From: Chitinophaga pinensis
GTDB lineage: Bacteria > Cyanobacteriota > Cyanobacteriia > PCC-6307 > Cyanobiaceae
NCBI GenBank assembly: GCA_943371815.1
Contig: CALRWB020000003.1
Location: forward strand, 68,707-108,706
DNA: 40,000 nucleotides
Reading direction: 5' to 3'
Part shown: piece by piece, positions 6,194 through 22,524 of the stretch
How positions within the stretch are numbered: the stretch's first letter is position 1
Layout: every line of letters starts with the position of its first letter
Position numbers and translations under genes: made by a program
The notes under the pieces: model-generated
Database searches by the model: none
Told to the model about the DNA's origin: nothing
The model's input: only the letters and a program-made list of their open reading frames with translations

Positions 6194-6214
6194 CGTCACT
6201 GCCTATTGCCATGG
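6194..6214 (-). promoter_or_regulatory. Conserved intergenic motif, copy 1 (CCATGGCAATAGGCAGTGACG in gene orientation)
   Basis: Identical 21-mer to 9299-9319. Lies 27 nt upstream of the fibre gene ATG, in the gap after the 6256 stop. Confidence 0.5.
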
Positions 6215-6255
6215 AGCTCTTTGAGTAGCTCGGAGCCCCATCTAATGAAGCGCTC

Positions 6256-6642
6256 TCAGCTGAGCAGCAGAGAAATGGTCAGCCCTGCCGGCGAGCCAGC
6301 CACGGCGGTGATCTCCAGCCACATCCAGTGCTCAGCTGGAACAACGGCATTCGCAAAGCTGCTGAACGCTGTACCACTGCTGGTGCTGCTCACCGTCATC
6401 GCTGAGCTGGTCGAGGCCGCGCCAGTGGCCGATGTATCGGCCCCGTGGCGGAGATGGAAGCTGACGCTTGGACTGCTGCCGCCGCTCAGCACCGCATCCA
6501 CCCTGGTGACGGATAGCGAATGGAGAGCACGCAGCACGATGCGCTTCTCGTTGGCCTGCGGTGCGGCAAGCCAGATGGTCTGAGGCGGTGTCGCTCCGGG
6601 TGGACCCAACAGCGAGGTCAGCTGGCGCCAGGAAAGGGGCAT
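6256..6642 (-). CDS. Hypothetical virion protein
   Basis: 128-aa ORF within the structural operon. Confidence 0.5.
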   Translation of the reverse strand: MPLSWRQLTSLLGPPGATPPQTIWLAAPQANEKRIVLRALHSLSVTRVDAVLSGGSSPSVSFHLRHGADTSATGAASTSSAMTVSSTSSGTAFSSFANAVVPAEHWMWLEITAVAGSPAGLTISLLLS

Positions 6643-6676
6643 CGAGGGGAGCAGTGGCCGCTATGTCCTCTTGCCA

Positions 6677-7453
6677 TCAGGCCGCCAGCTCGTAGACCTG
6701 CCCTCTCAGCCGGTCCAGATAAAAGTCCCCCACCGCCGGTGACGGCTGCAGGGTGGAGGGCGGCGGGCCGTCGCCGGAATACCAGCGGGTGGCCCTACTG
6801 CCGACACCCGATTCCTGCACCACCGCCAGGGCCGGCTCGCCGCTGCTCGGGTCCGGCATGAAGCCCAATCCGCCATTGGGGTGAAGGCGCAGGCGCCAGA
6901 CGACGGCATGGCGGCCGTCGTAGGGCTCACCGGTGATGCCGCCGCTGGGGATCAGTGGCTGGATCACGCCTGCTGTGCCGCCACCGCCATCGCGATTGTT
7001 GAGCAGTTGCTGGGGCGGCACCGGACAGCCCACCAAAGCGACCTGCAGGGTGGCGATCAGCATGCCCAGCTGCACCTGCACGGTCACATCGGCCCGCTGG
7101 GCATAGACGTGCCGCAGACGTGGGGCTTGCCTGGAGATCGCCGGCCAGGGCATCACGTTGCTGCTGCCATCACCCCAGGTGATCGAGATCGGCGTGGGGA
7201 TGCTCTGGCGCGGGTTGATCAGCAGCTCGATCGCGGCCGAACCGATCGGTTCGTTCCAGCGGCTGTCGGCTGGCAGCCAAAACAGTTCCAGGTCATCGGC
7301 CGGAATCGGGCCCTTGCGGTAGCCCAGTTCGGCCCAGCGGCTGAACTCCATCGGCAGCACCCATTGCTCCACCCCCGGGCAACCCACTGGTGGAAGCAGT
7401 CGCACCCGTTGGCCGCCCACGGTGCGTGGTTGCTGGGGCAGGGGGTAGGGCAT
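6677..7453 (-). CDS. Fibre-like protein with PKD-like segment
   Basis: ISITWGDGSS...RLRHVYAQRADVTVQVQL resembles a PKD repeat. C-terminal GDGPPPSTLQPSPAVGDFYLDRLRGQVYEL is a typical phage fibre motif. Confidence 0.65.
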   Translation of the reverse strand: MPYPLPQQPRTVGGQRVRLLPPVGCPGVEQWVLPMEFSRWAELGYRKGPIPADDLELFWLPADSRWNEPIGSAAIELLINPRQSIPTPISITWGDGSSNVMPWPAISRQAPRLRHVYAQRADVTVQVQLGMLIATLQVALVGCPVPPQQLLNNRDGGGGTAGVIQPLIPSGGITGEPYDGRHAVVWRLRLHPNGGLGFMPDPSSGEPALAVVQESGVGSRATRWYSGDGPPPSTLQPSPAVGDFYLDRLRGQVYELAA

Positions 7454-7471
7454 GGCCAGCAGGTGGTGGGA

Positions 7472-7873
7472 TCAAATCAGCGGGTCGTCCAGGAGGCCTT
7501 CTGGCAGGGCGCTGAGCGGCGCATCCTGTTCCGCAGGTGCACTCGGCTGGGGGAGGGGAGCAGCGTCGGCCGCGGCCTCCGGATTCAGCTCTTCCCTGGA
7601 TTTGCGGCTCCGCTTGCCGCGGGCTGATGCAGTTCTTGCATCACCTGCTCCCTCGTGCTCCGGCTCAGATGGCAGAGCAGCGGTTGTTGGTTCGCTGCCC
7701 TCCTCCGCAATGCGGATGTCCCTTGTGGCCGCAGGCGCTTTCGCCCCGACCACGCGCCACCCGATTGCCAGCCAGCCGGGTAAATGCACCGGCCAGACAT
7801 GGCGCTCCTCCGGCCCCTTGCTGATGCGCAGCATCCCTGCCGTCTGGGAACCTGCTCCGTGCAGCGCTGTCAT
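7472..7873 (-). CDS. Hypothetical virion protein
   Basis: 133-aa ORF. Its start is 2 nt from the upstream stop. Confidence 0.5.
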   Translation of the reverse strand: MTALHGAGSQTAGMLRISKGPEERHVWPVHLPGWLAIGWRVVGAKAPAATRDIRIAEEGSEPTTAALPSEPEHEGAGDARTASARGKRSRKSREELNPEAAADAAPLPQPSAPAEQDAPLSALPEGLLDDPLI

Positions 7874-7875
7874 GG

Positions 7876-8313
7876 TCAGGCCGGCAGGGTGGCGGTAAGG
7901 CCCACCACCATCCCCTCGGGCGTCGAGGGGGTGACGACAGCCTTGGCAAAGCAGAGCGCCGGCAGATCGGCGTTATCGACATCGGCCGTGTCCAGCAGGA
8001 TGTCGTGGCCGCTGATGTAGGCCTCCACCCGGCCACCTTCTGCTGGCACAGCGACGGTGGCGACGGGGATGAAGGTGCCCCTGGTTCCGTCGCGCAGCTC
8101 GGGCGCCAGGTGCAGCACCACCGTCACCGCAGCGCTGTGGCCGGGGTGGGACACCAGTAGGGAGAAGCGGGCAGCGGCATCAAGCTTGGTGTTGAGCTTC
8201 ACTACCTCACCGCTGCTGAACACCTTCTCGGTGTCACGGGTGGCGGAGCGGTTGGTCCAGCCCACCAGCAAGGTGGCGGCATCCAGCAAAGGGTTGGCTT
8301 TGAGGCGGGTCAT
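7876..8313 (-). CDS. Hypothetical head-associated protein (immediately downstream of capsid gene)
   Basis: Internal ATG at 8313 (MTRLKANPLL) is preceded by GGAGAA. The longer listed ORF would overlap the capsid gene. Confidence 0.55.
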   Translation of the reverse strand: MTRLKANPLLDAATLLVGWTNRSATRDTEKVFSSGEVVKLNTKLDAAARFSLLVSHPGHSAAVTVVLHLAPELRDGTRGTFIPVATVAVPAEGGRVEAYISGHDILLDTADVDNADLPALCFAKAVVTPSTPEGMVVGLTATLPA

Positions 8314-8347
8314 GGGTCGTTCTCCAGTCAGGGAATTCAGGGGGCGA

Positions 8348-9265
8348 TCAAGAGATCGGGGCGATGGAGTGGAGCCGGCCGGCAGCGCGCGGATGCATGA
8401 CGCCAAAGCCGACGTACCAGTCGATGCGTGTACGGAATACAGGTGCATCCGGCACCTCACCCAGGTCACGCACCGAGATGCCGTAGCGGCTCTGGAACGG
8501 GCCCTGCAGGCCGGTCACCGCCTGATCGCCAAAGGTGCAGCAATAGATCGAGCTGGTACCGCCGGCCTCGCCGTAACCCAGCACTTCCAGTCCCTGGGCG
8601 TCGCGATCGACCGTGAGGATCTGGCACTCCTGGTAGTGATGCACCATCACGCCCAGGTTGTTGGTGCTCACGTTGTAGATGCCCTGGCCAACCGTCTGGC
8701 GGGCGAGGGCATTGAGCTGGCGGCGCATCGCCTTGCTCATCACCAAATACTTCTTGCCGCCGTAGGAGTTGACCGAGTCGATCAGCTCATCGAGCTTGTC
8801 GAAATCGAGTGCTCCGCCACCGTTGTTGAGGGCCATCTCAGCTCCAGGGGAGAGGCGCCGGGCCAAGCCGTCAAAGCCCCGGCCCTGGCTGGCGGTGGCA
8901 TCACCGTTGATCAGGGCCGCCTCCAGCGTTAACCGCATCGAGCGCACCTTCATCTCGGTCTGTGCAGCCCGGGCTTCTGGGCCCTGCAGGTCCACGATCG
9001 AACGGTCCACATCGACGTCGCCGCCAAAGAGGTGCACGGCTTCTGACTGGGGGTCAACGACGCCGTAGCTCTGCTTGTAGCCCTCGTTCACGGCCCGGAA
9101 GCCCACCGAGGGGAGTTCCTTCTCGACGGAATAGAAGAGACCGCCGCCAGCGATGTTCATGAACGGCAGCCAGCTGAGCAGTTCGCCCTCAGCGAAGGTC
9201 TTGATCACCGCCAGGTGCTCTAGGCGGGTCTCGTACTTGGCTGCCTCGATCAGGGTGAGGCCCAT
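8348..9265 (-). CDS. Major capsid protein (probably HK97-fold)
   Basis: 305 aa from ATG 9265, with AGGAG 11 nt upstream. Positioned after the scaffold-like gene. Sequence is typical of phage major capsid proteins (...DFDKLDELIDSVNSYGGKKYLVMSKAMRRQLNAL...). Confidence 0.7.
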   Translation of the reverse strand: MGLTLIEAAKYETRLEHLAVIKTFAEGELLSWLPFMNIAGGGLFYSVEKELPSVGFRAVNEGYKQSYGVVDPQSEAVHLFGGDVDVDRSIVDLQGPEARAAQTEMKVRSMRLTLEAALINGDATASQGRGFDGLARRLSPGAEMALNNGGGALDFDKLDELIDSVNSYGGKKYLVMSKAMRRQLNALARQTVGQGIYNVSTNNLGVMVHHYQECQILTVDRDAQGLEVLGYGEAGGTSSIYCCTFGDQAVTGLQGPFQSRYGISVRDLGEVPDAPVFRTRIDWYVGFGVMHPRAAGRLHSIAPIS

Positions 9266-9298
9266 TGGTGCTGCACTCCTGGGGCCTGGCCCCTGTGA

Positions 9299-9319
9299 CG
9301 TCACTGCCTATTGCCATGG
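9299..9319 (-). promoter_or_regulatory. Conserved intergenic motif, copy 2
   Basis: Identical 21-mer to copy 1, 33 nt upstream of the capsid ATG. Here it continues into the palindrome GTGACGTCAC. Confidence 0.5.
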
Positions 9320-9523
9320 TCAGAACGTGGCTCCACAGCAGCGCATCCAAACGGGGAATCTGCAGGGCGTCGGTCGCCATCCCAGTCGGCGAGGGGAAGA
9401 AGGGATGCACCGCTGCCCCAGCCGTCTCGCCCTTGCAAGGATCAGGCCGGGCGCCTCTGCGAGACGTCCTTGCCAGGTCGCTACAGCCGGGGCCTGACGC
9501 GGGTGTCCCTCGCCTTCCTTGAG

Positions 9524-9748
9524 ATGGCTTCCTCGTTCCTTTGCTCTCCAGCCGCCGTCGAGATCCGCCAGCTGGTGGTTCACTCCTATCCCGATGGCAT
9601 CAAGGCCGCCGGTGCCGAGCGCGTCACGGTCTTTTATGGCCGCCAGGGCAAGCCGGTGAAAAAGCCCCGCTTCCTGCCGGCTGAGCTGGCCCACCAGCTG
9701 GCCCGCAAGCTGCAGGCCAAGCGCCTCGGCACCGTCTCAGTGCTCTGA
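9524..9748 (+). CDS. Small hypothetical protein (74 aa), plus-strand moron
   Basis: ATG at 9524. About 85% G/C at third codon positions by my count. Sits upstream of DoxX on the same strand. Confidence 0.45.
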   Translation: MASSFLCSPAAVEIRQLVVHSYPDGIKAAGAERVTVFYGRQGKPVKKPRFLPAELAHQLARKLQAKRLGTVSVL

Positions 9749-9901
9749 GGGCTCTGCCCTTTGGGCCTCGGGTCCCGCCCCGGTGGAGCTGCGGTTCCCC
9801 GGGGCTTTCCGCTGCCAAGCGGATCAGGACAGCGGGCAGACGAGCAGCACCTACCGACGAGTGGCCACCGACCAGACAATGCGCTGAGTAGACCTCACCC
9901 C

Positions 9902-10276
9902 ATGACCACTCTGAGCAGCCGCCCCTCATTGCTGAACCGCATCGCTCGGGTGCTGCTCTGCCTGGTGTTCATCCATGCGGTGATCGGCAAGCTGACGAGC
10001 TTTGCCGGTCCGGCTGCCGCCATTGCGGCCAAGGGTCTGCCGTTGGCACCGGTACTGCTGGTGGCGGCCATGGCCTTGATGGCGGTGGGTTCGGCCCTGG
10101 TGATCAGCGGCTGGAGGGCCCGCCTGGGGGCGGTGCTGCTGTTGGTGTTCCTAGTGCCCACCACCCTGCTGTTTCATGGCGATGTGAGTGATCCCGGCGA
10201 GCGGATCCAGCTGCTCAAGAACCTGGCGATCGTGGGCGGCCTGCTGCTGGTGGCCGATCAGAACAGCAAGGCCTGA
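9902..10276 (+). CDS. DoxX-family membrane protein
   Basis: 124 aa from ATG 9902. Hydrophobic DoxX-like sequence: LLNRIARVLLCLVFIHAVIGKL...LVFLVPTTLLFHG...NLAIVGGLLLVA. Confidence 0.8.
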   Translation: MTTLSSRPSLLNRIARVLLCLVFIHAVIGKLTSFAGPAAAIAAKGLPLAPVLLVAAMALMAVGSALVISGWRARLGAVLLLVFLVPTTLLFHGDVSDPGERIQLLKNLAIVGGLLLVADQNSKA

Positions 10277-10539
10277 GAGGGATTTCCCAGAACCTGAAAA
10301 ATTTCCGAGGCACCCTACGCCGCTGCCAGAAACAGGGGGAATACCCCTCGCGAGTTTGGGTTTTTCTGCGGGGATCTGCAGGCTTCTGCAAGGAGTTGCA
10401 GGGAGCTGATTTTGAAACGCAAATTATGAGCAAATCTCGCGATTTTTTTCGCGTCAGTTTCTCCCTTTTTGATTGTTGATTGTTTGCTCGCTTGTGTATT
10501 CCCAGGTTCGGGCGGTGGCGGGGTTGAATCAGTTGCGCG

Positions 10540-10926
10540 TCAGTGGCGGTGGGGTTGATTGGTTGAGCGTTGGGCTGCTTGCTCCGCAGCATCCATCCGT
10601 CGGGCAAGACCAGTGGCCCAGCGGCGGCCGGGTTCACCACCCCAGCCATCCCAGGCTTGACGGCCCTTGCCGTACTGATCCCAGCTGGAGCCCTGCTTGT
10701 CCACCTCGTGGCGGGCGAAGTAGCTCACCATCCGGTCGATGGTCGCGGGTGAGAGCTGCTGACGGTTGAGCAGCTGCCGGGCTCGTGCCAGCCCCACAGG
10801 CGTCATGCCGCGATTGGAGGGAGGTTGCTTGGCGCGGCGCTCCAGGGCACGCCTGGCTGCAGCGGCAACTGGCTGCGGCGGCCGGAAGGTCAGGCCTCGA
10901 TAAAAGCTGCTCGGCCGCCGTGCCAT
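10540..10926 (-). CDS. Hypothetical phage protein (start uncertain: ATG 10926 or GTG 10956)
   Basis: ORF directly after the scaffold-like gene. Motif GMTPVGLARARQLLNRQQLSPATIDRMVSYFARHEVDK...WDGWGG. Family not confidently recognised. Confidence 0.55.
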   Translation of the reverse strand: MARRPSSFYRGLTFRPPQPVAAAARRALERRAKQPPSNRGMTPVGLARARQLLNRQQLSPATIDRMVSYFARHEVDKQGSSWDQYGKGRQAWDGWGGEPGRRWATGLARRMDAAEQAAQRSTNQPHRH

Positions 10927-10942
10927 TGGAGTGTGCTCGAAC

Positions 10943-11800
10943 TCAACGACGAGCACCGCGGCCGTTCACCGCGAAGGACGCCCGGTAGAGCTCCGAGGCC
11001 GACATCGCCTGGGGGTTGATCGGCTCGCCGTTGCTGCCGATGCCCGATGCCGTAAGCGCACCAGCGGCCTGCATACCAGCCGGGCCCCGCTGCTGGAACA
11101 GGAAGCCGTAAACGGGATGCACGCGCATCTGATCGAGGAACTCGGTCGTGGTCATCGGCCTGCCGTCATCACCGAGCAGGGGCTTGCCCTGGGAGTCGAG
11201 GGGTTCGAGCACGTCCTTGCCGTCGTTGCCGTTGCTCAGCCGGAAGCAGGTGCCCAGCTGCCCTTTGAAGATGTCGAAAAAGGTGCCACGGCCATCGCCA
11301 CCGGTGCGGCCCTCGGCCTCTGAGAAGGCACGCTCAAGTAGACGCTCCTTACGCAGCTGCAGGATCTGCTGCTTGGCGTCATCGCGCTCAGCAGCAACGG
11401 CGGCCACCTTCTGGGCGGATGCTTCCTCCATCTGGCGCTCGCGCAGTTCCACCTGCTGCTCAAGGATCTGCTTCTGGCGTTCAGCGTCCTGCAGGCGGGA
11501 GTATTCCTCAGGGTTGATCTCGGAGAAGCGGTTCAGCTGCTGCTTGAGCGTGCGGATCTCTTTCTCTAGCTGGTTGGTCTTGCGCCGCTCCGCCCGTAGG
11601 GGGTCGGAGGAACGACTGTCGTCTGCGGCGCTAAAAGCCGCCTCAGATTGGGAAGACGTTTGACTGTCGGCGGCATCGCCTGAGACCTGGGCATCGCCAG
11701 TCCCGGGTTCGCTTGCCAGACCGGTGGCGGAGTAATTGTCATCAGCCCCTTGGCCGGCGGCGGCGGTAGGAGCAGTGTTGGAAGTGGTGGCAGTGGCCAT
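10943..11800 (-). CDS. Scaffolding-like protein
   Basis: Start MATATTSNT at 11800. Low-complexity N-terminus, then a long charged coiled coil (EKEIRTLKQQLNRF...QKQILEQQVELRERQMEE...). Lies between the portal block and the capsid. Confidence 0.6.
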   Translation of the reverse strand: MATATTSNTAPTAAAGQGADDNYSATGLASEPGTGDAQVSGDAADSQTSSQSEAAFSAADDSRSSDPLRAERRKTNQLEKEIRTLKQQLNRFSEINPEEYSRLQDAERQKQILEQQVELRERQMEEASAQKVAAVAAERDDAKQQILQLRKERLLERAFSEAEGRTGGDGRGTFFDIFKGQLGTCFRLSNGNDGKDVLEPLDSQGKPLLGDDGRPMTTTEFLDQMRVHPVYGFLFQQRGPAGMQAAGALTASGIGSNGEPINPQAMSASELYRASFAVNGRGARR

Positions 11801-11843
11801 GACCCATCGCGGCTGTCGTGGATGAGCACCCCATCCGGGCTGT

Positions 11844-11864
11844 GCTCTCCACCTATTGCCATGG
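11844..11864 (-). promoter_or_regulatory. Conserved intergenic motif, copy 3 (CCATGGCAATAGGTGGAGAGC)
   Basis: First 13 nt identical to copies 1 and 2; 16/21 overall. Lies 43 nt upstream of the scaffold ATG. Confidence 0.4.
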
Positions 11865-12118
11865 CGCTGAGCACTGACGCCAGAGTGGAGCTGATGCAAA
11901 CACCGCTCCGCCCCACCCCCCGCGAGACCACTGAGGCGATGGTGCGCAACATCGGCCGGGAGCTAGCCGAGATCGAGCAGAAGATGGCTCGCTGCCGTGG
12001 TGATGCGGTGGCGGAGCCCCGGTTAACGGGCACCTGGATGGCTCACCTGCTGATCAGCAGCAACGAGCTCATGCACAACCTTCTGATCGACACGGCCAAG
12101 CGGCCGCCGCGGCTTTAG
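11861..12118 (+). CDS. Small hypothetical protein (85 aa) on the plus strand inside the head operon
   Basis: ATG is the CCATGG core of motif copy 3. About 85% G/C at third positions by my count. Fills the 320-nt gap between minus-strand genes. Confidence 0.4.
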   Translation: MALSTDARVELMQTPLRPTPRETTEAMVRNIGRELAEIEQKMARCRGDAVAEPRLTGTWMAHLLISSNELMHNLLIDTAKRPPRL

Positions 12119-12121
12119 GTC

Positions 12122-13021
12122 TCAGCCCCGCGATAGCTCCAGCTGCCGCGCCAGCCACAGCTCCACTTCCTCGTAGGTGTAGCGAACGAGGTTGCCCAGC
12201 TTCACGAAGGGAGGGCCGTAGCCGCTGGAGTTCCAGCTGTAGATGGTGGAAAGGGAAACGCCTAGGTAGGTCGCCAGGGTTTCGGGCGTGTAGAAGCCGG
12301 CTGGCAGGGCGGTGGTGCTGGTGTCGGCGTTGGCTGCAGCGCGGCGCTTGGGCAGGAACAGCCAGCTCCCCAGCGGCAGTTGATCCGACGGGCGGGCGGT
12401 GATGGTGGGGTTGAGGCTGCGCAGGGTGGTCACGGTGGTGCCGTGGCGTTCGGCCAGCACGTTGAGGCTGTCGCCGGAGCCCACCACCGCCACTCGGTTG
12501 GGCTTGAGCGCCGCCTGGACCCGTTCGCCCAGTAGCGGCTGGGTCAAGGAGCCAATGCCACCAGCGCCGTAGAGCCCACCAAACTCGGTCACGGAAAAGG
12601 CCCCCAGCTGGCCTCGGGTCGGGGAGGGAAGCAGGCCTGGCGTGCGCAGCTCCGACAGCGGCCCCAACCAGACGGCCCCAAAGCAGGGGGTGAGCAGCGC
12701 CGGGGTGGTGGCAGACACCGGCCGGATGCCGCTGGTGCTCCAGCTGATGTCGGCTGCCAGCCAGTCCCAGGGTTGGGACGGTGTCAGTGGCAGCACTGCC
12801 CCGCGAGTCAGGTAGCCCTCGTAGGTGAAGTCCCCCGTGTCGAGTCCGGGGGCGTTCTCCTTGCTGGAGATGCCACGCAGGCGCTTGAGGAACCCCTCAA
12901 AGACGAACCGTCCGGTGCGCTCCGAATCGAGCACGCCGGGGATGGCATTGGAGAACAGCAGGATGCGGGCATTGGCGTAGGGCTGCAGCGCCGAGGGGGG
13001 CAAGGTTGGGGTGCTGGTCAC
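12122..13021 (-). CDS. Protein with LysM domain and C-terminal excisionase/AlpA-type HTH
   Basis: GTG start. LysM-like VVGSGDSLNVLAERHGTTVTTLRSLNP...LPLGSWLFLP. C-terminal YTPETLATYLGVSLSTIYSWNSSGYGPPFVKLGNLVRYTYEEVELWLA resembles excisionase-family HTH. Confidence 0.7.
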   Translation of the reverse strand: MTSTPTLPPSALQPYANARILLFSNAIPGVLDSERTGRFVFEGFLKRLRGISSKENAPGLDTGDFTYEGYLTRGAVLPLTPSQPWDWLAADISWSTSGIRPVSATTPALLTPCFGAVWLGPLSELRTPGLLPSPTRGQLGAFSVTEFGGLYGAGGIGSLTQPLLGERVQAALKPNRVAVVGSGDSLNVLAERHGTTVTTLRSLNPTITARPSDQLPLGSWLFLPKRRAAANADTSTTALPAGFYTPETLATYLGVSLSTIYSWNSSGYGPPFVKLGNLVRYTYEEVELWLARQLELSRG

Positions 13022-13024
13022 GGA

Positions 13025-13543
13025 TCAACCCCGCTCCAGCGCTGCGGTGAAGCTCCCGCCACCGCTGCTCAGCTGGGAGTCGCGGCTCCAGTTCGCCAGG
13101 GTCGGCAGCATCAGCACCAGGGCCTGAGCATGGCTACCCCGCTGCCGCCGCAGGGCCTGTTCGATCGAGAGGCCCACACCAAAACGAGTGATGGTCTCCT
13201 CGCGCAGCAACTCGGTGTCGAACTCGATCACGTCGGCCTTCTTGACCGGCAGCGTCCCGTCCTCCGGCAGTGCATCAGCAATGGCTGCCTTGCGGCGGGT
13301 TTCGATCGGCGCCATCAGCTGCTCCGGGTTCAGCCCTGCCAGTTCAGTGTCGATAGCAGCGATGGCATCCAGTTCCCGCCTGGCGGTGGGGATGGCGTCG
13401 GGGTAGAGCTGCTCCAGATCTGCCATCGCGTCGTTGATGGCGCGGATCCCCGCCATCCGAGCCGGGATCGAGAGGGCGATGCGGATCCCCTCCAGGTCAG
13501 CAGCACGCCAGCGGTAGGGCGGGTCGACGGGGGTCTGGCTCAT
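13025..13543 (-). CDS. Hypothetical head-module protein
   Basis: 172-aa ORF. ATGA overlap with the portal stop. Confidence 0.55.
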   Translation of the reverse strand: MSQTPVDPPYRWRAADLEGIRIALSIPARMAGIRAINDAMADLEQLYPDAIPTARRELDAIAAIDTELAGLNPEQLMAPIETRRKAAIADALPEDGTLPVKKADVIEFDTELLREETITRFGVGLSIEQALRRQRGSHAQALVLMLPTLANWSRDSQLSSGGGSFTAALERG

Positions 13544-15099
13544 GAGGCTGCAGGCGCGGCTGTCTCCTCTTGCCTCAGAGGCACAGGAGCCGTGGGCGCC
13601 GGAGCAAGGCCTACCTCGCCGGCCCGGGTCGCTGGGCTGTCATCCAGCGTTGGACTGCTGATCGCGTTGGCCGTCGCCAGAGCCAGTTGGTGCCGCAGTT
13701 CCTCCCGGCTGATCACGCCCTTATCGAAGAGCTCGATCCATTCCTTCACCTGGGGCTGCGGCTGGATCGGTGGGGTGAGCGGGCTCACCGTCACCTGCAG
13801 ACCGGCACCTGGATCGAGGAGTTCACCGCTTAAGGAACACCAGTGCTGCAGGAGGGTGGAGAACAGCGAGGCTTTCTGGATCGCCATTGCCTGCAGCAGC
13901 GCATAGCTCTGGGAGGCGGTGAGGCTGATCTCCATCTCAGTGCGGGCAGCACCACGGTTCTGGGATGGGATCAGCGCGTCGCGGCGCATGGTGTCATCGA
14001 GGATCTGCAGCCAGGCACGGTGCTCGGCCAGGGACCGGGCGCGGATCTCTACGAACTCGAAGGAGGCATCAGCCGGCAGGTCCATGCAGGTGTTGGGACC
14101 CAGCACGACCGGTCCGGCCTGGCTGTTGCCCATGGCGTCGACCATCCCCTTGCGGACGCCAACGGGAAGAGCAGTCCTGGAGAGGAGCTCCTCGTATTCG
14201 CTCTTACAGCGGAAGTGGTTGAGGTACTGGTGCGCCAGGCCCAGGTGCGGCAGGTCCCCCTCCCCGAAGGCCGAGCCATCGGAGGTGTACCAGCAGGCCG
14301 GCAGCCGGCTGATGCCCTCGTACGTCGTGACCAACGGCTCGTCGCAGCGCCAGCCCGTCGTGGCCTGCGGGTCAGCGCAGACAGGGTGGTGGGCCAGCTG
14401 CAGGCCCGTGACGGCATCACCAGCGGTGAGCAGCTGCAGGCTGCGGTAGTGCCAGCGGTCGGGGGCGTCGGCATCGCCCAGCAGAGCGTTGATCTGCTCG
14501 CTGACAGCCCCTTCAGGGCCGGGAGCCTCGGTGCTGATGGGGAGGCTCACTGGCTCTCGCCAGACGATCTGGCTCGGCAGTCCGTTGGACTCGGGCAGCT
14601 CCCAGTTCAGGCAGTTGGATCGGGGTACCAGCTGGAGGCGGGGGAGAGACAGGCGATCGCCGCGGCGGAGGGCCTCCTGCCGGTCGCCCTCGCTGGGCCA
14701 GCTGTGCTCGGGAGGGAGCACCAGAACCAGGGCGGCGCCATCGCGCAGCACCAGCAGGTCGGCAGCGGACAAGAACACACCCAGGTCCGTGCCCCTCCCA
14801 TCCACATCGGTGAGCACTGAGGTCAGGCTGGCAGGGAGGCTGATCCAACTGCCTCGGCTGAGCATGCCGGCGTAGGTGCGCAGGGCGTCACGGAAGAAGC
14901 CCGAAGGGCGGGCGGCGTCGAGGCGTTTGCGGTAGGCGGTGTCGGGTTCCCGCTCGCCCTTGGGGAGGTAATGCTCCTTGCGATTGCTGCCGTCGGGGGC
15001 GGCGAGAAGGGCCCAGCAGTCGGCGGTGATCTGGAGATCGGGGCATTGCCCCACAAGCACTGAATGGCGCCGCCAAGGAGCATGGTTTAGCAGAGGCAT
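13540..15099 (-). CDS. Portal protein (DUF4055-like N-terminal motif)
   Basis: 519 aa, the first large gene of the head block after the terminase. HYLPKGEREPDTAYRKRLDAARPSGFFRDALRTYAGML matches my recollection of a portal-associated motif. Confidence 0.7.
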   Translation of the reverse strand: MPLLNHAPWRRHSVLVGQCPDLQITADCWALLAAPDGSNRKEHYLPKGEREPDTAYRKRLDAARPSGFFRDALRTYAGMLSRGSWISLPASLTSVLTDVDGRGTDLGVFLSAADLLVLRDGAALVLVLPPEHSWPSEGDRQEALRRGDRLSLPRLQLVPRSNCLNWELPESNGLPSQIVWREPVSLPISTEAPGPEGAVSEQINALLGDADAPDRWHYRSLQLLTAGDAVTGLQLAHHPVCADPQATTGWRCDEPLVTTYEGISRLPACWYTSDGSAFGEGDLPHLGLAHQYLNHFRCKSEYEELLSRTALPVGVRKGMVDAMGNSQAGPVVLGPNTCMDLPADASFEFVEIRARSLAEHRAWLQILDDTMRRDALIPSQNRGAARTEMEISLTASQSYALLQAMAIQKASLFSTLLQHWCSLSGELLDPGAGLQVTVSPLTPPIQPQPQVKEWIELFDKGVISREELRHQLALATANAISSPTLDDSPATRAGEVGLAPAPTAPVPLRQEETAAPAAS

Positions 15100-15110
15100 A
15101 AGGCAGGGGA

Positions 15111-15131
15111 GTCACACTGACTCTTGCCAGG
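15111..15131 (-). promoter_or_regulatory. Conserved intergenic motif, copy 4 (CCTGGCAAGAGTCAGTGTGAC, degenerate)
   Basis: Aligns to the consensus with one 1-nt deletion and one 2-nt insertion. Lies 11 nt upstream of the portal ATG, at the left junction of the low-GC block. Confidence 0.4.
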
Positions 15132-15162
15132 CTTCCCGACACATGAGCATTCAGACCAATAA

Positions 15163-15669
15163 TTAAAGGGCTGACGAGCTGGTCTGCTTGCGACTAATCT
15201 CATTAAAATATTTATGCAGCTGAGAAACTATGATCCAGGTAACGACTACAACCTGAACGAAGCTGCTCGTAGCAAGCATGATCATCCATGGGAACAAGAG
15301 CCTTCCGTGGGGCCTCGAAAACACACCAAGAGACACTGCGGCCGTAGATCCAAGACACAGAAGGGAAAGATAGTAAAGCGAGAAGAAGACCTGGTGATAG
15401 CGATAGCCCCTATACCTGGCAAATGCCCGACCCGAAGAAAGGCCAAATAGTATGGTAATAATTGTCGCAAGAAATCCCATAAAAGTTATTGATGCTGTAA
15501 TGAGTATTTCTGCTATGGGTTCTGATTTCCCATAAAGGGCAAAAGCTAGATCGGGCCATTTCCAAACAGCAAGCTTATAAAGTCCGTATGCGACTGGTCC
15601 ACTCAGCAAGGTCGCCGAGCAGAGCAAGATCGTCAAGATTATCAGTTGTGAATGCGTCGGCTTGCTCAT
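15163..15669 (-). CDS. RexB-like four-TM membrane protein
   Basis: 168 aa with four hydrophobic helices (about residues 8-30, 52-77, 92-116, 123-150). ITILFGLSSGRAFARYRGYRYHQVFFSLYYLSL resembles recalled lambda RexB LTFLIGSRTRRLAKIREYGYMTSVVIVYALSF. Confidence 0.6.
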   Translation of the reverse strand: MSKPTHSQLIILTILLCSATLLSGPVAYGLYKLAVWKWPDLAFALYGKSEPIAEILITASITFMGFLATIITILFGLSSGRAFARYRGYRYHQVFFSLYYLSLLCLGSTAAVSLGVFSRPHGRLLFPWMIMLATSSFVQVVVVTWIIVSQLHKYFNEISRKQTSSSAL

Positions 15670-16507
15670 GATGATTCACCTTTTGAGGAAGAACGTGATT
15701 GCGCTGGATTGCTGTTCTGATTTGTCTAAGTATATCTTGATCCGATCCATTATCAAGTTCATCGCTGACATGGCCACGGCCCGCAAGGTGCAACTCAATC
15801 AACGTGTCATCCAGACTTTCCAGCCTCCCTCGGCAAACAATCTTTTCCGAGGTCTCTATCCCTGGCAGCCGAAGAACCTTAGACATAGCGCGCTGGATGT
15901 TCGACCTCGGGCGAGGCCTAATGATTACCTCGATGCTATCAACATCAGTAAAGTCTTGAATGTCAGCTCCCAAAACATTGACAAAGTGGCCAAATAGAGA
16001 ATGATTGTTTTGGACCTTAATCTCAGAACGCCCGAGAAAAGGGGCGGAAAGAGCTGTTTCGATGCTGGTGCACTCTAGAAATGGATAAAGAATAAATCGG
16101 TACTTATCCAGTCTAATTTCCTTGAGCAGGTCATTTATAAAGCGCGCAAACGAAGGAGCCCTAGGGGCCATCATTGTTGATGTAAATGCCAAATAGCTCT
16201 TTTCGAACAAAACGTATGAGGCACACCCAAGTCGCTCGTTAGCACTTAACAGAGTGTTGATCTCGACGACATCGAGATTGGTGCTATTTATGCGCTTTAT
16301 GACCTCATTCTGCCTTGTTGCCAGGTATAGATAGAAATTTTGGTCAATGCCGAGAAGAAAGTAATTCTCTCCTTCGCGAATAAATTTATTCTTGAATGAA
16401 ATATCATTGAGCGCAGAAAAGCAGGCAAGAAGGGGGCGCACATCAAAAAGGTGATACCTATCTTCCTGTATGTCATGAATGGCGTATCCATAATAGGAAA
16501 GCTTCAT
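15575..16507 (-). CDS. RexA-like soluble protein
   Basis: 310 aa. Several blocks resemble recalled lambda RexA: MKLSYYGY vs MKNGFYATY; KRINSTNLDVVEINTLLSANERLGCASYVLFEKSYLAFTSTMMAP vs KINRSKASVEDIKNSLADDESLGFPSFLFVEGDTIGFARTVFGP; VNVLGADIQDFTDVDSIEVIIRPRPRSNIQR vs LKVLGATDIEGELFDSLDIVIKPKFKRDIKK. Confidence 0.6.
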   Translation of the reverse strand: MKLSYYGYAIHDIQEDRYHLFDVRPLLACFSALNDISFKNKFIREGENYFLLGIDQNFYLYLATRQNEVIKRINSTNLDVVEINTLLSANERLGCASYVLFEKSYLAFTSTMMAPRAPSFARFINDLLKEIRLDKYRFILYPFLECTSIETALSAPFLGRSEIKVQNNHSLFGHFVNVLGADIQDFTDVDSIEVIIRPRPRSNIQRAMSKVLRLPGIETSEKIVCRGRLESLDDTLIELHLAGRGHVSDELDNGSDQDILRQIRTAIQRNHVLPQKVNHHEQADAFTTDNLDDLALLGDLAEWTSRIRTL

Positions 16508-16537
16508 TGGCTCATCGCGCCCTCGGTTAAATATATT

Positions 16538-16565
16538 ATCTTACTATCGCCGTCTCCCTGAGCAA
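16538..16565 (-). promoter_or_regulatory. Candidate sigma-70-type promoter for the Rex-like pair (TTGCTC, 16-nt spacer, TAAGAT)
   Basis: Found in the 120-nt AT-rich spacer upstream of the ATG at 16507. GAGGG lies 12 nt before the ATG. Pattern match only. Confidence 0.3.
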
Positions 16566-16627
16566 GCGATTGAAATACATATCAATGCAGTCGCTATCTT
16601 GCCGTGAAATGATTCTCGTGTCGCCCG

Positions 16628-17134
16628 TCAAGCAACCTCGCTCTTGTCGCACAATGTGCATACCCTAAGGGAGCAAGCAAAGGCAATTTCATGCCATCTT
16701 TCGGGTTTAATACCTAATCTTGTAGGCACTTCAGAGGGCAACAAGCCACGCCTCAGAAGCTTCTGTCCTCGAGCGTGCAATTCCCTCCAACTTGCAGGCA
16801 CTTTGATCAGGAACCCCTTATCACGGAGGTAGTGATACACCTCCCCATTGGCATAGGTGCGGGCATAGGGCCGAAATGATCCCCGCTCCGGGGAGTAGCG
16901 GCGGGCAGCATGGATGATGCCGAGCATGGCGATCTGCTCCAGGTCCTCCTTTGGATGACCAGTCCGGCGGGAGATGTTGCCAGCGACGGTGGCGGCGATG
17001 TCGCCGTGCTGCAGTGCCAACGCATTGGCCGCGGCATGGGGGTTCACTGGCCGATGCCGTCGTGGTTTGGGTGGATAAGCCACCACCCTGGGGCAGGGCC
17101 GATGGGGATGGGACGGATCGAGTGATTGGCTCAT
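16628..17134 (-). CDS. Sigma-70-family (SigF-like) protein lacking region 4; possibly truncated or chimeric
   Basis: Start MSQSLD at 17134, 4 nt after the terminase stop. Region 2: EDLEQIAMLGIIHAARRYSPERGSFRPYARTYANGEVYHYLRDKGFLIKVPASW. Region-3-like: LLPSEVPTRLGIKPERWHEI. Ends 13 residues later with no region-4 HTH. The GC drop begins inside the 3' part. Confidence 0.65.
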   Translation of the reverse strand: MSQSLDPSHPHRPCPRVVAYPPKPRRHRPVNPHAAANALALQHGDIAATVAGNISRRTGHPKEDLEQIAMLGIIHAARRYSPERGSFRPYARTYANGEVYHYLRDKGFLIKVPASWRELHARGQKLLRRGLLPSEVPTRLGIKPERWHEIAFACSLRVCTLCDKSEVA

Positions 17135-17138
17135 TGGC

Positions 17139-18830
17139 TTACCTGGAGAACACCATCGGCACAGGCGAGGTGCCGTAGCCCCGGCCCCGCCAGAACTGCG
17201 CCTCGATCCAGAGGACCCCCTGGCAGAAGGCATCCACCTGGTCGTCCACACCACCTCTGGGCGAGAAGGCCAGAAGTTCCTCGATCAGCGAGTTGGCCTT
17301 GCGGGCAAAGCGCACTTGACCCGCCTCCACCAAGGGCGCAACCGCATGGGCCCTGGATGCCTTGCTGCCCTTGGGAGGAATGGCGATCAGGCCGGGAAGC
17401 TGGCGCTTGAGCAGCTGGCAGACGGCCGGGCCGTTGGCGGCGTCTTCTAGGAGGACGGCATTGGGGCGCAGGCCCTGGCGCTCCAGCGAGGCCAGGGAGG
17501 CCAGCAGGAACTTGATCACCCCCGGCAGGTCCAGCTGCTGCCGGTGGCTCCAGAGCGCCTCGATCTGCAGTTCGGCCCAGGGGTCGGGGGCATGTGCCCC
17601 CACTGCGGAGAGAGATCCACTACCCCTTGCAGCTCCTGCATTGGCGGCCAGCGCCAGGCCCTGCCGGCGAGCATCGGCAGCAGGGTGGCGCTGCGGCTCC
17701 AGCAGACCGAGCAGGGCAAAACCGCATGCGTCGTTGTCTTTTCCGTCCTTGAAGCTCAGATCGCAGCTCAGCACCAAAGGCGCATAGCGGCGTGGCTGGC
17801 CCGGGGCGATCGGCAAAGGAGGCTGGATCCACTGCTTCCGGAACAGCAGGCCTTCAGCGGGGCTGGGGCGCTGCTGGTAGAGGGCGTTCCACCAGTAAGA
17901 GCCCAGGCGGGTGCGGATGCGCTGCAGCACCTCCAGCGGCACCCGCTCGGGGCAGAGCGGCTCGCCGGGCTGGCGCCAGTCGATGACCTTGGTGCATGTA
18001 TGCGGAATCTGCATCGCAATGGATTCCGGTTCGGCGATAGCCGGCAGGTTGAGCACGGTCCAGTGCTCCGGGTTCTCCTCCGCTTCTTGCTCGAGCAACC
18101 AGGCAGTCATGTCGTGGTGGTCCCAGCGGGTCTGCACCACCACCTGGGCCGCCGGCAGCAACCCACCTGTTGCCGTCAGGCCAGGCTCGGCCCGGGTGAA
18201 CCAGACGCTCTTGAGCCAGTCGATCAGCCGCTCCCGTTGCAGCGCCGACTTGGCGTCCTCCGGGCCTTTGTAGGGGTCGTCGATGATCCCAAGGTTGTAG
18301 CCCTTGCCCGTGAACGGGCCCCGCACGCCGGCGGCGATGCAGCCACCCCGCTGGGGCGTCAGCCAGTTGCCCACCGCCGCCGAATCCTTGGAGAGGGCAT
18401 GGCCGGTGCTCCGGTAGTAGTGCCGCGCTTCTCTCGAGTGGGCATAGGCCAGCTCACCGGAGTAGCTGGCAATGGCGCAGAACTGCTGCGGGTGCCGGCT
18501 CACCCAGTAAGCAGGGAACAGGCGCGAAACCAGCTGGGATTTGCCGTGCCGCGGCGGACAGCAGACGATCAGGCGCGTCAGCTGGCCATCGGCCACCTGC
18601 TGGAGCAAGTCGATCAGCAGTTCAGAGAGCTGGTGGAACTGAAAGGTGGGGAAGGCCGAGCGAATGAAGTCGCGAAATAGCAGGCCTTGTCCGGTCGTTG
18701 TCGCCCGGTCAGGGTCGGGAACACCCAGCAGGCCCCAGTCGGCCCAAAGGTCGGTGGCGGGGTCCAGCAGCAGCCCGCCATCGCCAGTGATGGCGTTCGT
18801 CGGTCTGGTTGTCGCGGCGATGCGGCCCAT
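17139..18830 (-). CDS. terL: Terminase large subunit
   Basis: 563 aa. Walker A CCPPRHGKSQ, Walker B-like LGIIDDPYKG, C-terminal nuclease-type region. TGATG overlap with the upstream gene. Confidence 0.9.
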   Translation of the reverse strand: MGRIAATTRPTNAITGDGGLLLDPATDLWADWGLLGVPDPDRATTTGQGLLFRDFIRSAFPTFQFHQLSELLIDLLQQVADGQLTRLIVCCPPRHGKSQLVSRLFPAYWVSRHPQQFCAIASYSGELAYAHSREARHYYRSTGHALSKDSAAVGNWLTPQRGGCIAAGVRGPFTGKGYNLGIIDDPYKGPEDAKSALQRERLIDWLKSVWFTRAEPGLTATGGLLPAAQVVVQTRWDHHDMTAWLLEQEAEENPEHWTVLNLPAIAEPESIAMQIPHTCTKVIDWRQPGEPLCPERVPLEVLQRIRTRLGSYWWNALYQQRPSPAEGLLFRKQWIQPPLPIAPGQPRRYAPLVLSCDLSFKDGKDNDACGFALLGLLEPQRHPAADARRQGLALAANAGAARGSGSLSAVGAHAPDPWAELQIEALWSHRQQLDLPGVIKFLLASLASLERQGLRPNAVLLEDAANGPAVCQLLKRQLPGLIAIPPKGSKASRAHAVAPLVEAGQVRFARKANSLIEELLAFSPRGGVDDQVDAFCQGVLWIEAQFWRGRGYGTSPVPMVFSR

Positions 18831-19402
18831 CAGGCCTTGGCCTCCGGGGGCTTGATCGGTGCCCGCAGCAGGCCACCGATCTCGGCGATCACCCGGAACG
18901 CACCAACCGCGGCGTTGAACTGGCCAGCGTCCATCGCCCGCCGGGCACAGTCATTGAGGGCAAAGATCTGTTCGGCCTGGTGCCGGCGGCGATCGGTGAT
19001 GAGCTCCTGCACCATGCGCTCCCGCGCCAGTGACAGGTACCGGCTGACGGTGCGGACGTTGGTGATCCCCCAGTTTTGTCGGGCATTTGTCCGAATCTCG
19101 ATCAATGGCAGCCGTTGAGCGATCCAGAGTTGTGACTCCGCAACTCGGCGTTCAACCTCCTGGCGACTGGGGCGCGGCGAGAAAGGAGCCTCGGCAGTTG
19201 GTCGAGGGGGCTGGTTGCACCGAGGGTGGGCCCCTTTGGTCGCCTTCTTCTGCTTGCCGTCGCTCCAGACCGGTTTGCCATCCGCATCTTCTGTCGGCGC
19301 TGAGTTGCGCAGTTCTTCCACTGCATCGGCGCCTTCAGGGTGTTCCCCGCTGTGGCAATCTTCTGCGGGAACGTTATCCACGGGCCGCCATTTGGCTGTC
19401 AC
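18830..19402 (-). CDS. Candidate terminase small subunit (start uncertain, GTG)
   Basis: 190-aa ORF immediately upstream of terL and overlapping it. Basic/helical C-terminal half. Assignment is by position only. Confidence 0.45.
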   Translation of the reverse strand: MTAKWRPVDNVPAEDCHSGEHPEGADAVEELRNSAPTEDADGKPVWSDGKQKKATKGAHPRCNQPPRPTAEAPFSPRPSRQEVERRVAESQLWIAQRLPLIEIRTNARQNWGITNVRTVSRYLSLARERMVQELITDRRRHQAEQIFALNDCARRAMDAGQFNAAVGAFRVIAEIGGLLRAPIKPPEAKA

Positions 19403-19423
19403 TAAGTCTAGGCCTTATTGGCC
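19396..19423 (-). promoter_or_regulatory. Possible degenerate, expanded motif copy 5 (GGCCAATAAGGCCTAGACTTAGTGACAG)
   Basis: Shares the GGC(C)AATA(A)GG and AGTGAC halves with the consensus, separated by 9 extra nt. Sits at the start of the terminase block. Confidence 0.3.
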
Positions 19424-21351: not shown

Positions 21352-22524
21352 TCAGAGCGGCTCAGCGCCTTCGCTGAGAATCGCCAGATAGGCGTCGTAG
21401 GCAAAGAGCCGGTTGCGTTGCCCGCCGGTGATCTCCCGTGCAATGCCCAGGTCCACCAGGGTCTCCAGGGCTTTGGCTGTGGTGCTGAAGCTCAGGCTGC
21501 AGACGCTGCTCAGCTGTTTGATGCTGTTGAGTGGGCGCCGGCACAGGGCCGCAAACACCTGGCGAACGCTGGGGCCTGAACGTCCCAGGCCGCTAAGGCG
21601 GGCCTCATCTGTGCGGAACAACGCCAGCAGGCGATGTGCGGTGGTGACGGCGGCAGTTGCGGTGCTCTCGACGCCTTCTAGGAAGAAATCGATCCAGGCT
21701 TCCCAGTCGCCGTCCTCGCGGATGCCACTTAGCAGTTCGTAGTAGCGGCTGCGGTGCTGCTTGAAGAAAAGGCTCAGGTAGAGCAGCGGCTGCTGAAGCA
21801 CCCCGGCATCGATCAGCATCAGCACGATCAGCAGCCGGCCCAGGCGCCCGTTGCCGTCCAGAAATGGGTGGATGGTCTCGAACTGCACGTGGGCCAAGGC
21901 GGCCCGCACCAGCACCGGCAGGGAGTGAGCCCCATCCGGAGTGCCGTGGATGAAGTGCTCCAGCTGGCCCATGCACGTGTCCACCAGCTCGGGGGGCGGT
22001 GGCACAAAGCTGGCGTTACCGGGCCGGGTGCCGCCGATCCAGTTCTGGCTCCGGCGGAACTCCCCAGGCAGCCGATCGGCTCCGCGGCCCCTGGCAAGCA
22101 AGCGGGAGTGGATCTCCCGCAGAAGCCGCGAGGAGAGGGGGAAGTCCTCCCGCAGCCGCGCCAGGCCGTGCTCCAGTCCTGCCACATAACTGGATACCTC
22201 GACCACGTCATCGAAGGGGACGCCGGGGGCCTCTTCCAGCTCGAACAGCAGCAGGTCTGCGAGCGACGACTGGGTGCCCTCGATCTGGGAGGACAGCAGA
22301 GCTTCCCGCCTCACGTAGGCGTAAAGGAACAGCTCCCGATCCGGCAGCAGGGCTGACACCCCATCCAGACGGCCGCAGGCCAGCAGTGCCCGATCGTGCA
22401 GGGCCTGGAGGGCGCCCTCGATCAGCAAGGGCGGCTCTGGCGGCAACGGCGCTGGCACGAAGGCGCGCACCTCCTCGCCAGCAGTGCTGGTGAGCTCATA
22501 ACGGCCGGCGCTGTCGCGCTTCAT
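21352..22524 (-). CDS. Fic-family protein (class II, N-terminal autoinhibitory helix, C-terminal wHTH)
   Basis: Fic motif HPFLDGNGRLGR. Inhibitory [ST]xxxE[GN] motif SSQIEG in the N-terminal domain. 390 aa. Confidence 0.9.
   Translation of the reverse strand: MKRDSAGRYELTSTAGEEVRAFVPAPLPPEPPLLIEGALQALHDRALLACGRLDGVSALLPDRELFLYAYVRREALLSSQIEGTQSSLADLLLFELEEAPGVPFDDVVEVSSYVAGLEHGLARLREDFPLSSRLLREIHSRLLARGRGADRLPGEFRRSQNWIGGTRPGNASFVPPPPELVDTCMGQLEHFIHGTPDGAHSLPVLVRAALAHVQFETIHPFLDGNGRLGRLLIVLMLIDAGVLQQPLLYLSLFFKQHRSRYYELLSGIREDGDWEAWIDFFLEGVESTATAAVTTAHRLLALFRTDEARLSGLGRSGPSVRQVFAALCRRPLNSIKQLSSVCSLSFSTTAKALETLVDLGIAREITGGQRNRLFAYDAYLAILSEGAEPL

Follow-up and report, generated by a model that had tools for sequence, protein, structure and literature searches.

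A conserved TGGCAAYAG box before the virion genes of a prophage-like element in Cyanobium, a probable single-block late promoter

Introduction

To our knowledge, picocyanobacteria rarely carry prophages, and we know of no account of when their temperate or defective phage elements are expressed. The late promoters of phage T4 consist of TATAAATA alone, which is read by gp55 together with gp33. Systems of the T4 kind combine a single block in the -10 region with a sigma factor that is cut down to its -10-reading part, and many of their promoters stand before single virion genes or small groups of genes. In the mobile promoter/stem-loop (PeSL) cassettes, which lie at module junctions of T4-type phages, a conserved promoter sequence marks the points at which unrelated cargo is exchanged. 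Among the cyanobacterial promoters of the SigF type, the only characterised one, PpilA1-54 of Synechocystis PCC 6803, has TAGGC at -32 and GGTAA at -12, and both are needed (PMC2532724). Cyanosiphoviruses carry a group-3 sigma gene adjacent to terL whose target was noted as unknown in 2009, and the paper on cyanophage P-SS2 held that this sigma probably serves a specific regulon and named no promoter for it (PMC2784084). In this work, a stretch of 40,000 nucleotides of a Cyanobium chromosome (contig CALRWB020000003.1, positions 68,707 to 108,706, assembly GCA_943371815.1; hereafter the window) was analysed. Its positions 1 to ~23,000 form a prophage-like element with the virion genes on the minus strand and two sigma genes, sig168 directly after terL and, on the plus strand at the other end, sig205. 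We describe a short box before the virion genes, which is probably a single-block, extended -10-type late promoter. In the literature, no prior description was found of this motif or of these elements.

Materials and Methods

All coordinates are positions of the window. Contig CALROW020000003.1 (GCA_943369895.1) matches the window, and its gene calls served as an independent annotation; 19 of 20 query proteins were found there with 100% identity, and sig205 with 99.5%. The set of relatives comprised ~70 loci (~852 kb), which came from a scan of a genome collection with the exact 21-mer given below, from an exact look-up of the capsid protein, from relatives of the capsid, the small terminase subunit (TerS) and sig205 in viral contigs, and from cyanophage P-SS2. 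For each protein of the window, the distinct upstream sequences over all loci were scored for GGCAAN[AG]G within 150 nt. A position weight matrix (PWM) was built from the sites of the relatives only, and 44 non-redundant sites were aligned on TGGCAA for the information content of each column.

Results

Sites in the window

The 21-mer CCATGGCAATAGGCAGTGACG occurs in two identical copies on the minus strand (6214-6194 and 9319-9299), where chance would give none, and the 13-mer CCATGGCAATAGG is found in exact form a third time, at 11864-11852. These copies had been seen in an earlier note made on this DNA from its letters alone, which listed related versions at 11864-11844 before the scaffold gene and at 15131-15111 before the portal gene and gave distances to the four start codons of 27, 33, 43 and 11 nt; both the copies and the distances are correct. 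The pattern TGGCAANAG matches the window five times, always on the minus strand and always in an intergenic gap directly before a gene, with no match on the plus strand and none in the 17 kb of host DNA of the window. All five sites lie on the gene strand, 17-52 nt ahead of the start codons. The PWM ranks the same five sites at the top (25.6, 24.0, 23.8, 16.7 and 15.5), and the next scores are 13.0 and 12.8. The sites, together with a weaker sixth one, are as follows.

6194..6214, minus strand: fibre box, core TGGCAATAG at 6211-6203; exact 21-mer; PWM score 25.6, the maximum of the window
6659..6680, minus strand: p128b box (new), core TGGCAAGAG at 6676-6668; right after the TGA stop of p258 and 25 nt before the ATG; PWM score 16.7
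9299..9319, minus strand: capsid box, core TGGCAATAG at 9316-9308; exact 21-mer, then a hairpin GGGGCC-a-GGCCCC and a GGAG ribosome-binding site
11844..11864, minus strand: scaffold box, core TGGCAATAG at 11861-11853; PWM score 24.0
15111..15131, minus strand: portal box, core TGGCAAGAG at 15129-15121; PWM score 15.5
13567..13575, minus strand: weak sixth site aGGCAAGAG, 23 nt before the p172 ATG at 13543, inside the 3' end of the portal gene

The portal version differs from the 13-mer by more than three mismatches and is validated as a member by orthology, as 31 of 32 distinct portal upstream regions carry GGCAA-N-RG at this place. The site before p128b and the possible weak site before p172 (13575-13567) had been missed earlier. 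At the p172 site, the conservation in the window could merely reflect the coding sequence of the portal gene, and a second family of elements has the equivalent TGGCAA(G/C)(G/A/T)G in a non-coding gap past the portal stop. Two proposed copies had to be given up. An "expanded" copy had been placed at 19423-19396 before TerS; most relatives lack a motif there, and only a few bases separate their TerS start from the end of the gene ahead of it; in the window a terminator-like hairpin AGAGCCAATAGCTCT with a T-run (19449-19435) adjoins this stretch. A plus-strand match at 108-125, upstream of sig205, falls below the PWM threshold, and at this distance ahead of the sigma gene the relatives have no sequence in common. 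The repeat is thus real and stronger than first stated, with two copies removed and one or two added.

Sequence and extent of the box

Over the window and the relatives, the invariant core of the box is TGGCAAYAG, and its broader form is GGCAA-N-RG. In the family of the window the invariant part is TGGCAATAG. The second family among the loci (capsid identity 62%, portal identity 53%) has CTGGCAACAG at every site, that is before the scaffold gene, before the capsid gene in the same place as in the window, before a gene that lies 2.1 kb past the capsid start, and before an opposite-strand YkuD gene. The shift of the motif is therefore concerted, with CAG for TAG at all sites of this family. The portal genes have TGGCAAGAG in the window and variants of the form (T/C)GGCAA-N-(A/G)G across portals of 52-100% identity, and the p128b site is kept in relatives with a protein identity of 60-63% and different 5' flanks.

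Conservation begins 2-3 nt ahead of TGGCAA, and the sequence further 5' is unrelated between relatives. The earlier note had conservation start abruptly at CCATGG; CCATGG as the functional core is rejected, because relatives often replace it with GGC-, GCC-, CCC-, GCG- or ACC- followed by TGGCAA, and the core is TGGCAAYAG. Among the 44 aligned sites, the columns upstream of position -3 hold at most 0.2 bit, there is a weak preference for C-(A/C) immediately 5' of the core, and a semi-conserved G-T-G-A occupies +12 to +15. A short open reading frame from the ATG of the box (MAIG...) was dropped, since it is out of frame with every downstream gene and its ATG is lost in relatives.

At the scaffold box, CCATGG contains the start codon of the opposite-strand gene p85, and the control regions of the two divergent genes overlap there. 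In three relatives (L002, L015 and L020) the p85 homologue lies ~300 nt from the box, so the overlap is not obligatory. The earlier note had this palindrome supply the start codons of plus-strand reading frames at 11861 and 9316; the former is p85, a called gene, and the latter is not the called gene at that locus.

The homology breaks between relatives coincide with the 5' edge of the box, as for recombination at short shared sequences, and they would suit a box without any regulatory role, which acts as a recombination linker at module boundaries or is inherited with the leader of each gene. We give this very little credence, because the same box stands before five non-homologous genes, remains fixed while the surrounding portal leaders diverge beyond alignment, and keeps a strict orientation with its downstream gene, including opposite-strand genes. 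Recombination at these boundaries is better seen as a consequence of shared promoters.

Distribution over gene classes

In the relatives, the box has an all-or-none distribution over gene classes. The numbers of distinct upstream sequences with a box are given below.

Capsid: box in 22 of 22, from 13 unrelated 5' contexts
Fibre: 11 of 11, 7 unrelated 5' contexts
p128b: 9 of 9, 4 unrelated 5' contexts
Portal: 31 of 32, 27 unrelated 5' contexts, portal identity 52-100%
Scaffold: 13 of 17, 7 unrelated 5' contexts
p172: 24 of 27, 11 unrelated 5' contexts
p128a, p145, p133, p258, p141, p302, p414 and p125: 0 of 7-24 each
TerS: 2 of 35, off-consensus matches at chance level
TerL: 4 of 36, off-consensus matches at chance level
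sig168: 6 of 33, off-consensus matches at chance level
LysM-HTH: 3 of 25, off-consensus matches at chance level

The box thus stands upstream, in sense orientation, at the heads of transcription units (capsid, fibre, p128b, portal and scaffold) and before none of the eight internal genes. Its orientation tracks that of its gene, including the opposite-strand gene for a YkuD-type cell-wall enzyme in the second family. Over the ~852 kb, TGGCAATAG has 41 sites in distinct sequence contexts, of which 40 lie on the virion-gene strand, and letter permutations of this 9-mer give a mean of 1.7 sites. Enrichment, strand bias and conservation in relatives had been named in advance as checks on the repeat, and the positions before the capsid, fibre, p128b and portal genes are indeed conserved. 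Exact copies of the 21-mer also occur in two contigs of Cyanobium sp. Cruz-8D1 (NZ_JAGQCD01), which carries two related elements, in one Cyanobium metagenome-assembled genome (MAG) and in two contigs filed under a Bradyrhizobium MAG, in each case before a capsid or a fibre gene. The two Bradyrhizobium contigs are probably mis-binned.

Some further observations concern single relatives. The loci L002 and L005 (CALRKN02 contigs of a "Bradyrhizobium ivorense" MAG) hold a Cyanobium-type element with near-identical capsid and fibre leaders. The YkuD (L,D-transpeptidase-like) gene lies just upstream of the capsid gene (L026, 8699-9442, minus strand; equivalents in L028-L031), and its protein possibly has a late cell-wall or lysis function. 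In L006, a perfect TGGCAATAG followed by CTGTGA lies at 20267-20259 (minus strand), ~1 kb to the left of the position that corresponds to window position 1 and ~130 nt from the end of a host chromate-transporter gene, at the junction of element and host. It points to an 89-aa gene and sig205, and the next called gene is nearly 500 nt off; it could be a chance match or a feedback promoter.

Evidence on a probable promoter function

The earlier note had placed all copies in the gaps of a tightly packed operon. They do lie in intergenic gaps; the tight operon does not hold, because opposite-strand genes stand directly upstream of the scaffold site (p85) and of the capsid site (a 92-aa gene). Genes past such opposite-strand inserts need promoters of their own, and the box is the only conserved sequence there. 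No sigma-70-type promoter was found before any virion gene of the window, where the only consensus matches lie inside the RexA region of lower GC. Likewise, no -35-like element appeared among the 44 sites, since both the column information and the enrichment of 4- and 5-mers upstream of the box returned only the stop-codon contexts of the preceding gene. The earlier note had itself reported no consistent partner element, and this stands. Its comparison of the TAGGC stretch with the SigF element does not, because the stretch varies (TAGCC, TAGGT, CAGCT) and lies at the wrong distance. A reading as an NtcA-type site was ruled out on spacing and sequence. From the anatomy, distribution and conservation of the box, we infer that it is probably a single-block, extended -10-type late promoter for the virion genes of the element.

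A binding site for a DNA-binding regulator was considered as well, either a late activator site or a repressor operator beside some other promoter; the protein with LysM and HTH_17 domains encoded at 12122-13021 would be an example of such a regulator. An HTH_17/excisionase-type protein is conserved inside the virion module of both families, and an asymmetric site of 9-16 bp could fit a monomeric helix-turn-helix protein. On the other hand, a test for a dyad-symmetric operator found no symmetric partner for TGGCAAYAG, and the palindrome CCATGG is not conserved. There is also no conserved core promoter on either side of the box, which lies 17-52 nt from the start codons and leaves no room at the portal and p128b genes for a separate -35/-10 pair and a leader. 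A regulator site is therefore unlikely.

The position of the box in leaders, close to start codons, would also suit an element that acts in RNA within longer transcripts, such as a translational operator or a site of processing or stability. In the fibre leader (6214-6160, minus strand), CCAUGGCA of the box and UGCCAUGG around the start codon are exact reverse complements and give an 8-bp stem (fold z = -2.1), and the capsid leader has a conserved hairpin. However, the five copies of the window share no common fold (z-scores from -2.1 to +1.2), and Rfam gave no matches in the window. Across the families, the distance from the box to the start codon ranges from ~5 nt (the p172 site of the second family) to 52 nt, a variable spacing that fits a promoter better than an element of the ribosome site. 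Where the gene ahead of the box is on the opposite strand, as at several sites, a promoter would still be needed and nothing else is conserved, and CCATGG is not kept in relatives. An RNA-level element is thus very improbable. The CCAUGGCA/UGCCAUGG pair was rejected as an RNA switch, because it is found in the fibre copy only and is uncompensated in relatives with CCTGGCA or CCCTGGCA (L014/L020). Both families keep the hairpin GGGGCC-N-GGCCCC of the capsid leader (9298-9266, minus strand), followed by GGAG, at an unchanged distance from the box, and the sequence differences fall mostly in the central bases of the hairpin, which probably stabilises the 5' end of the capsid mRNA or serves its translation.

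Sigma genes of the element

The best profile matches of both sig168 and sig205 are SigB/F/G-type (group 3) models. The match of sig168 covers only positions 42-159 of the 258-position cyanobacterial SigF model. Its core FRPYARTYANGEVYHYLRDKGFLIKVP..WRELHARG (regions 2.3, 2.4 and 3.0) and a 3.1-like helix are kept across all families, while region 4 gave no match, and the protein ends at 168 aa in those relatives where it is full length. Its identity to the group-3 sigma of P-SS2, S-CBS2 and S-CRES1-3 is 30-36%, and the gene order terS-terL-sigma is common to the element and P-SS2. Lacking region 4, a sigma factor is unable to read a -35 element, in keeping with a promoter of a single block. 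In sig205, regions 2 and 4 are both present. It has no match in isolated phages, and an exact protein look-up found nothing. In relatives whose capsid is only 62% identical, sig205 is 75-84% identical. The element thus has candidate cognate sigma factors of its own, and both sigma genes are conserved in the second family.

The sig205 gene is preceded by a conserved leader of its own, without a box. This leader (~150-283, plus strand; core 193-236, ~150 nt) has an inverted repeat GTCAAGGATCGGGCCATGCGCCCC-loop-GGGGCGTCCTTG that is kept in all families, and the sequence further upstream is unrelated. Similar CAAGGA...TCCTTG pairs occur before other opposite-strand genes in relatives (e.g., L007, L008, L014, L019 and L020). 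The leader could be an operator pair or a structured RNA leader that controls non-late genes. The sequence GGCAACAG at 38-45 (plus strand), upstream of sig205, was considered and set aside, as it is not conserved in relatives.

The late genes could, in principle, be plugged into the regulon of the host, with the box as a promoter read by a host group-3 (SigF-type) sigma. The sequence GGCAA is one base off the -12 element GGTAA of Synechocystis SigF, and elements with diverged or split sigma genes retain the same box. This is nevertheless quite unlikely, because each family retains two element-encoded sigma genes, sig168 is conserved between families in its DNA-reading regions 2.3-3.0, the host DNA of the window is free of box matches, and SigF promoters of the host need a -32 element that is absent here.

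Several results weigh against a late promoter that is read by a sigma of the element. The scores of the two TGGCAAGAG sites (15.5-16.7) fall within the range of shuffled sequence (maximum 18.4), and these sites therefore depend on position and orthology and not on the score alone. The box is only loosely linked to a particular sigma: L007 has identical boxes, although its sig205 is split and its sig168 has an N-terminal half that is diverged (overall identity 46%). The identity of sig205 does not follow the split between TAG and CAG boxes, and sig168 follows it only roughly, with L007 as an exception. Moreover, sig205 has a region 4, yet no -35 element exists, and SigF promoters are bipartite, whereas the box has no -32 element (none is conserved upstream of -3 in the 44 sites). 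P-SS2 carries a homologous sigma and shows no such box before its capsid gene; the 16.9 kb around that gene have no enrichment of TGGCAAYAG. Finally, the host DNA covered is the 17 kb of the window, and a host regulon with the same box is possible.

Gene map of the element

The window has a G+C content of 65%, and ordinary host genes (glycogen phosphorylase, phosphoketolase and others) follow from ~23.8 kb onward. The element has the following genes.

21352-22524, minus strand: Fic/DOC protein, cargo-like
18830-19402, minus strand: TerS
17139-18830, minus strand: TerL
16628-17134, minus strand: sig168, a sigma factor of 168 aa, directly after terL
15575-16507, minus strand: RexA (Pfam RexA, E = 4e-52)
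15163-15669, minus strand: 168-aa open reading frame after RexA, no family match
13540-15099, minus strand: portal, ATG at 15099
ATG at 13543, minus strand: p172
12122-13021, minus strand: LysM plus HTH_17 protein
11861-12118, plus strand: p85, directly upstream of the scaffold box; called gene in CALROW020000003.1
ATG at 11800, minus strand: scaffold
9902-10276, plus strand: DoxX membrane protein, cargo-like
9470-9748, plus strand: 92-aa gene, 204 nt from the capsid start; called gene in CALROW020000003.1
ATG at 9265, minus strand: major capsid protein
ATG at 6642, minus strand: p128b
ATG at 6166, minus strand: collagen-like fibre
1956-2333, minus strand: 125-aa protein at the end of the fibre operon, borderline match to a Nif11 domain
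284-901, plus strand: sig205, the second sigma factor

The homologues of p85 in relatives are 75-94% identical. The 92-aa gene and the DoxX gene (9470-10276, plus strand) are cargo that separates the scaffold unit from the capsid unit, and other relatives have an opposite-strand gene between p128b and the fibre gene. The RexA region (15163-16507, minus strand), which separates sig168 from the portal box, has a lower GC (58-59%) and sigma-70-like promoter matches. The slot before the portal gene, which holds RexA here, is filled with unrelated genes in relatives, some of them on the opposite strand, and appears to be a hotspot for cargo or defence genes right ahead of a putative late promoter. 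For the remaining proteins of the virion module, scans against PHROG and Pfam returned almost nothing. The stretch from the chromate-transporter gene, which lies just outside the left end of the window, to glgP showed no integrase, no replication genes, no tape measure and no recognisable tail genes. In related viral contigs, additional genes directly precede TerS. Possibly, the element is a derivative that was reduced, satellite-like or domesticated.

Discussion

The main idea of the earlier note was that the element, with sigma genes of its own, has a late-promoter set dedicated to it, whose GGC(A/G)ATAG core is like the -10 element of group-3 sigma factors. This idea stood up in all available computational tests, and several details of the note did not. 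The idea held on account of the orientation and position of the sites, their all-or-none distribution, their conservation down to 52% protein identity, the lack of sigma-70-type promoters and the SigF-like sigma factors. Beyond the promoter itself, we tentatively hypothesize that the GGCAAYAG box and the region-4-less, SigF-like sigma next to terL may form a -35-independent late-transcription system, which would be functionally like that of T4 gp55 and built from a cyanobacterial group-3 sigma. The absence of region 4 in sig168 and the likeness of GGCAA to the SigF -12 element GGTAA fit the missing -35 element.

In this proposed mechanism, TerS, TerL and sig168, which have no box, would be transcribed from upstream, and sig168 would then direct the core RNA polymerase of the host to the boxes without a -35 contact. 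On the standard geometry of the sigma-70 family, TG would be the extended -10 dinucleotide (-15/-14) and CAAYAG the hexamer from -12 to -7, with a conserved A at -11. Transcription would start on the G or A of the semi-conserved G-T-G-A; this purine-containing stretch sits 4-7 nt past the box, at about the distance expected for a sigma-70-family promoter, in which starts lie ~6-8 nt downstream of the element. The predicted starts on the minus strand are ~6198-6196 (fibre), 6663-6661 (p128b), 9303-9301 (capsid), 11848-11846 (scaffold) and 15116-15114 (portal). The box would head five or six transcription units:

portal
p172 and LysM-HTH, provided that the weak site is genuine
scaffold and p128a
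capsid, p145, p133 and p258
p128b
fibre, p141, p302, p414 and p125

The box gives a concrete candidate target for the terL-adjacent sigma, an operon map of the virion module and start sites predicted within 3 nt. It also explains the insertion point of the cargo (RexA, DoxX, Fic-type and others), which lies immediately upstream of these putative promoters. If the proposal is true, a regulon would have been found for a sigma gene that is conserved in P-SS2, S-CBS2, S-CRES and related prophage-like elements, and the pair of sigma and box would make a compact orthogonal expression switch for picocyanobacteria (Synechococcus, Cyanobium). If the promoter reading fails, the box would be an ordinary conserved leader motif.

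In kind, such a late-promoter set is another phage-specific promoter set of an alternative sigma factor, and the comparison with described systems places it as follows. The sigma-54 promoter (TGGCAC-N5-TTGCW) shares its -24 element with the TGGCA of the box. It was rejected, because such promoters need GG and GC exactly 10 nt apart and TGGCAA-TAGGC-AGTG has no GC at the -12 position, where AGTG stands in place of TTGC; moreover, we know of no rpoN in cyanobacteria. With extended -10 (TGn) promoters, the box shares a TG two positions upstream of a hexamer with A as its second base and the absence of a need for a -35 element, and sig168 retains the TG-reading region 3.0. In contrast to them, the hexamer CAAYAG ends in G and not in T, and the T of the TG is often C in distant relatives. 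The comparison with the PeSL cassettes holds in that the conserved promoter sequence marks the exchange points of unrelated cargo here as well; in the element, however, what is conserved goes with the core gene downstream of it and not with the cargo.

As for SigF promoters, the SigF and SigB/F/G models are those that the sigma factors of the element match best, the invariant GGCAA agrees with GGTAA in four of five positions at a place compatible with the -12 element, and SigF promoters, like the box, are not of the sigma-70 type. They differ in that the terL-adjacent sigma of the element has no region 4, in that no AG-rich tract was noted upstream of the box, and in that the box continues with YAG and then G-T-G-A. 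The cyanosiphoviruses P-SS2, S-CBS2 and S-CRES1-3 are, unlike the element, free phages of ~70-108 kb, and ORF003 of P-SS2 has 214 aa, whereas sig168 has 168 aa. For their sigma gene, the box is a candidate target. With T4 late promoters, the box shares a single -10-region block without a -35 element and a place before single virion genes or small groups of them, and sig168 has only regions 2-3 of the sigma profiles and no region 4. On the other hand, the consensus TGGCAAYAG is unrelated to TATAAATA, sig168 is SigF-like with no gp55 family among its best profile matches, and we know of no counterpart of gp33 or of the sliding clamp in the element. The proposed box system would work like T4 late transcription, and by its sequence it stands outside both the T4 type and the bipartite SigF class.

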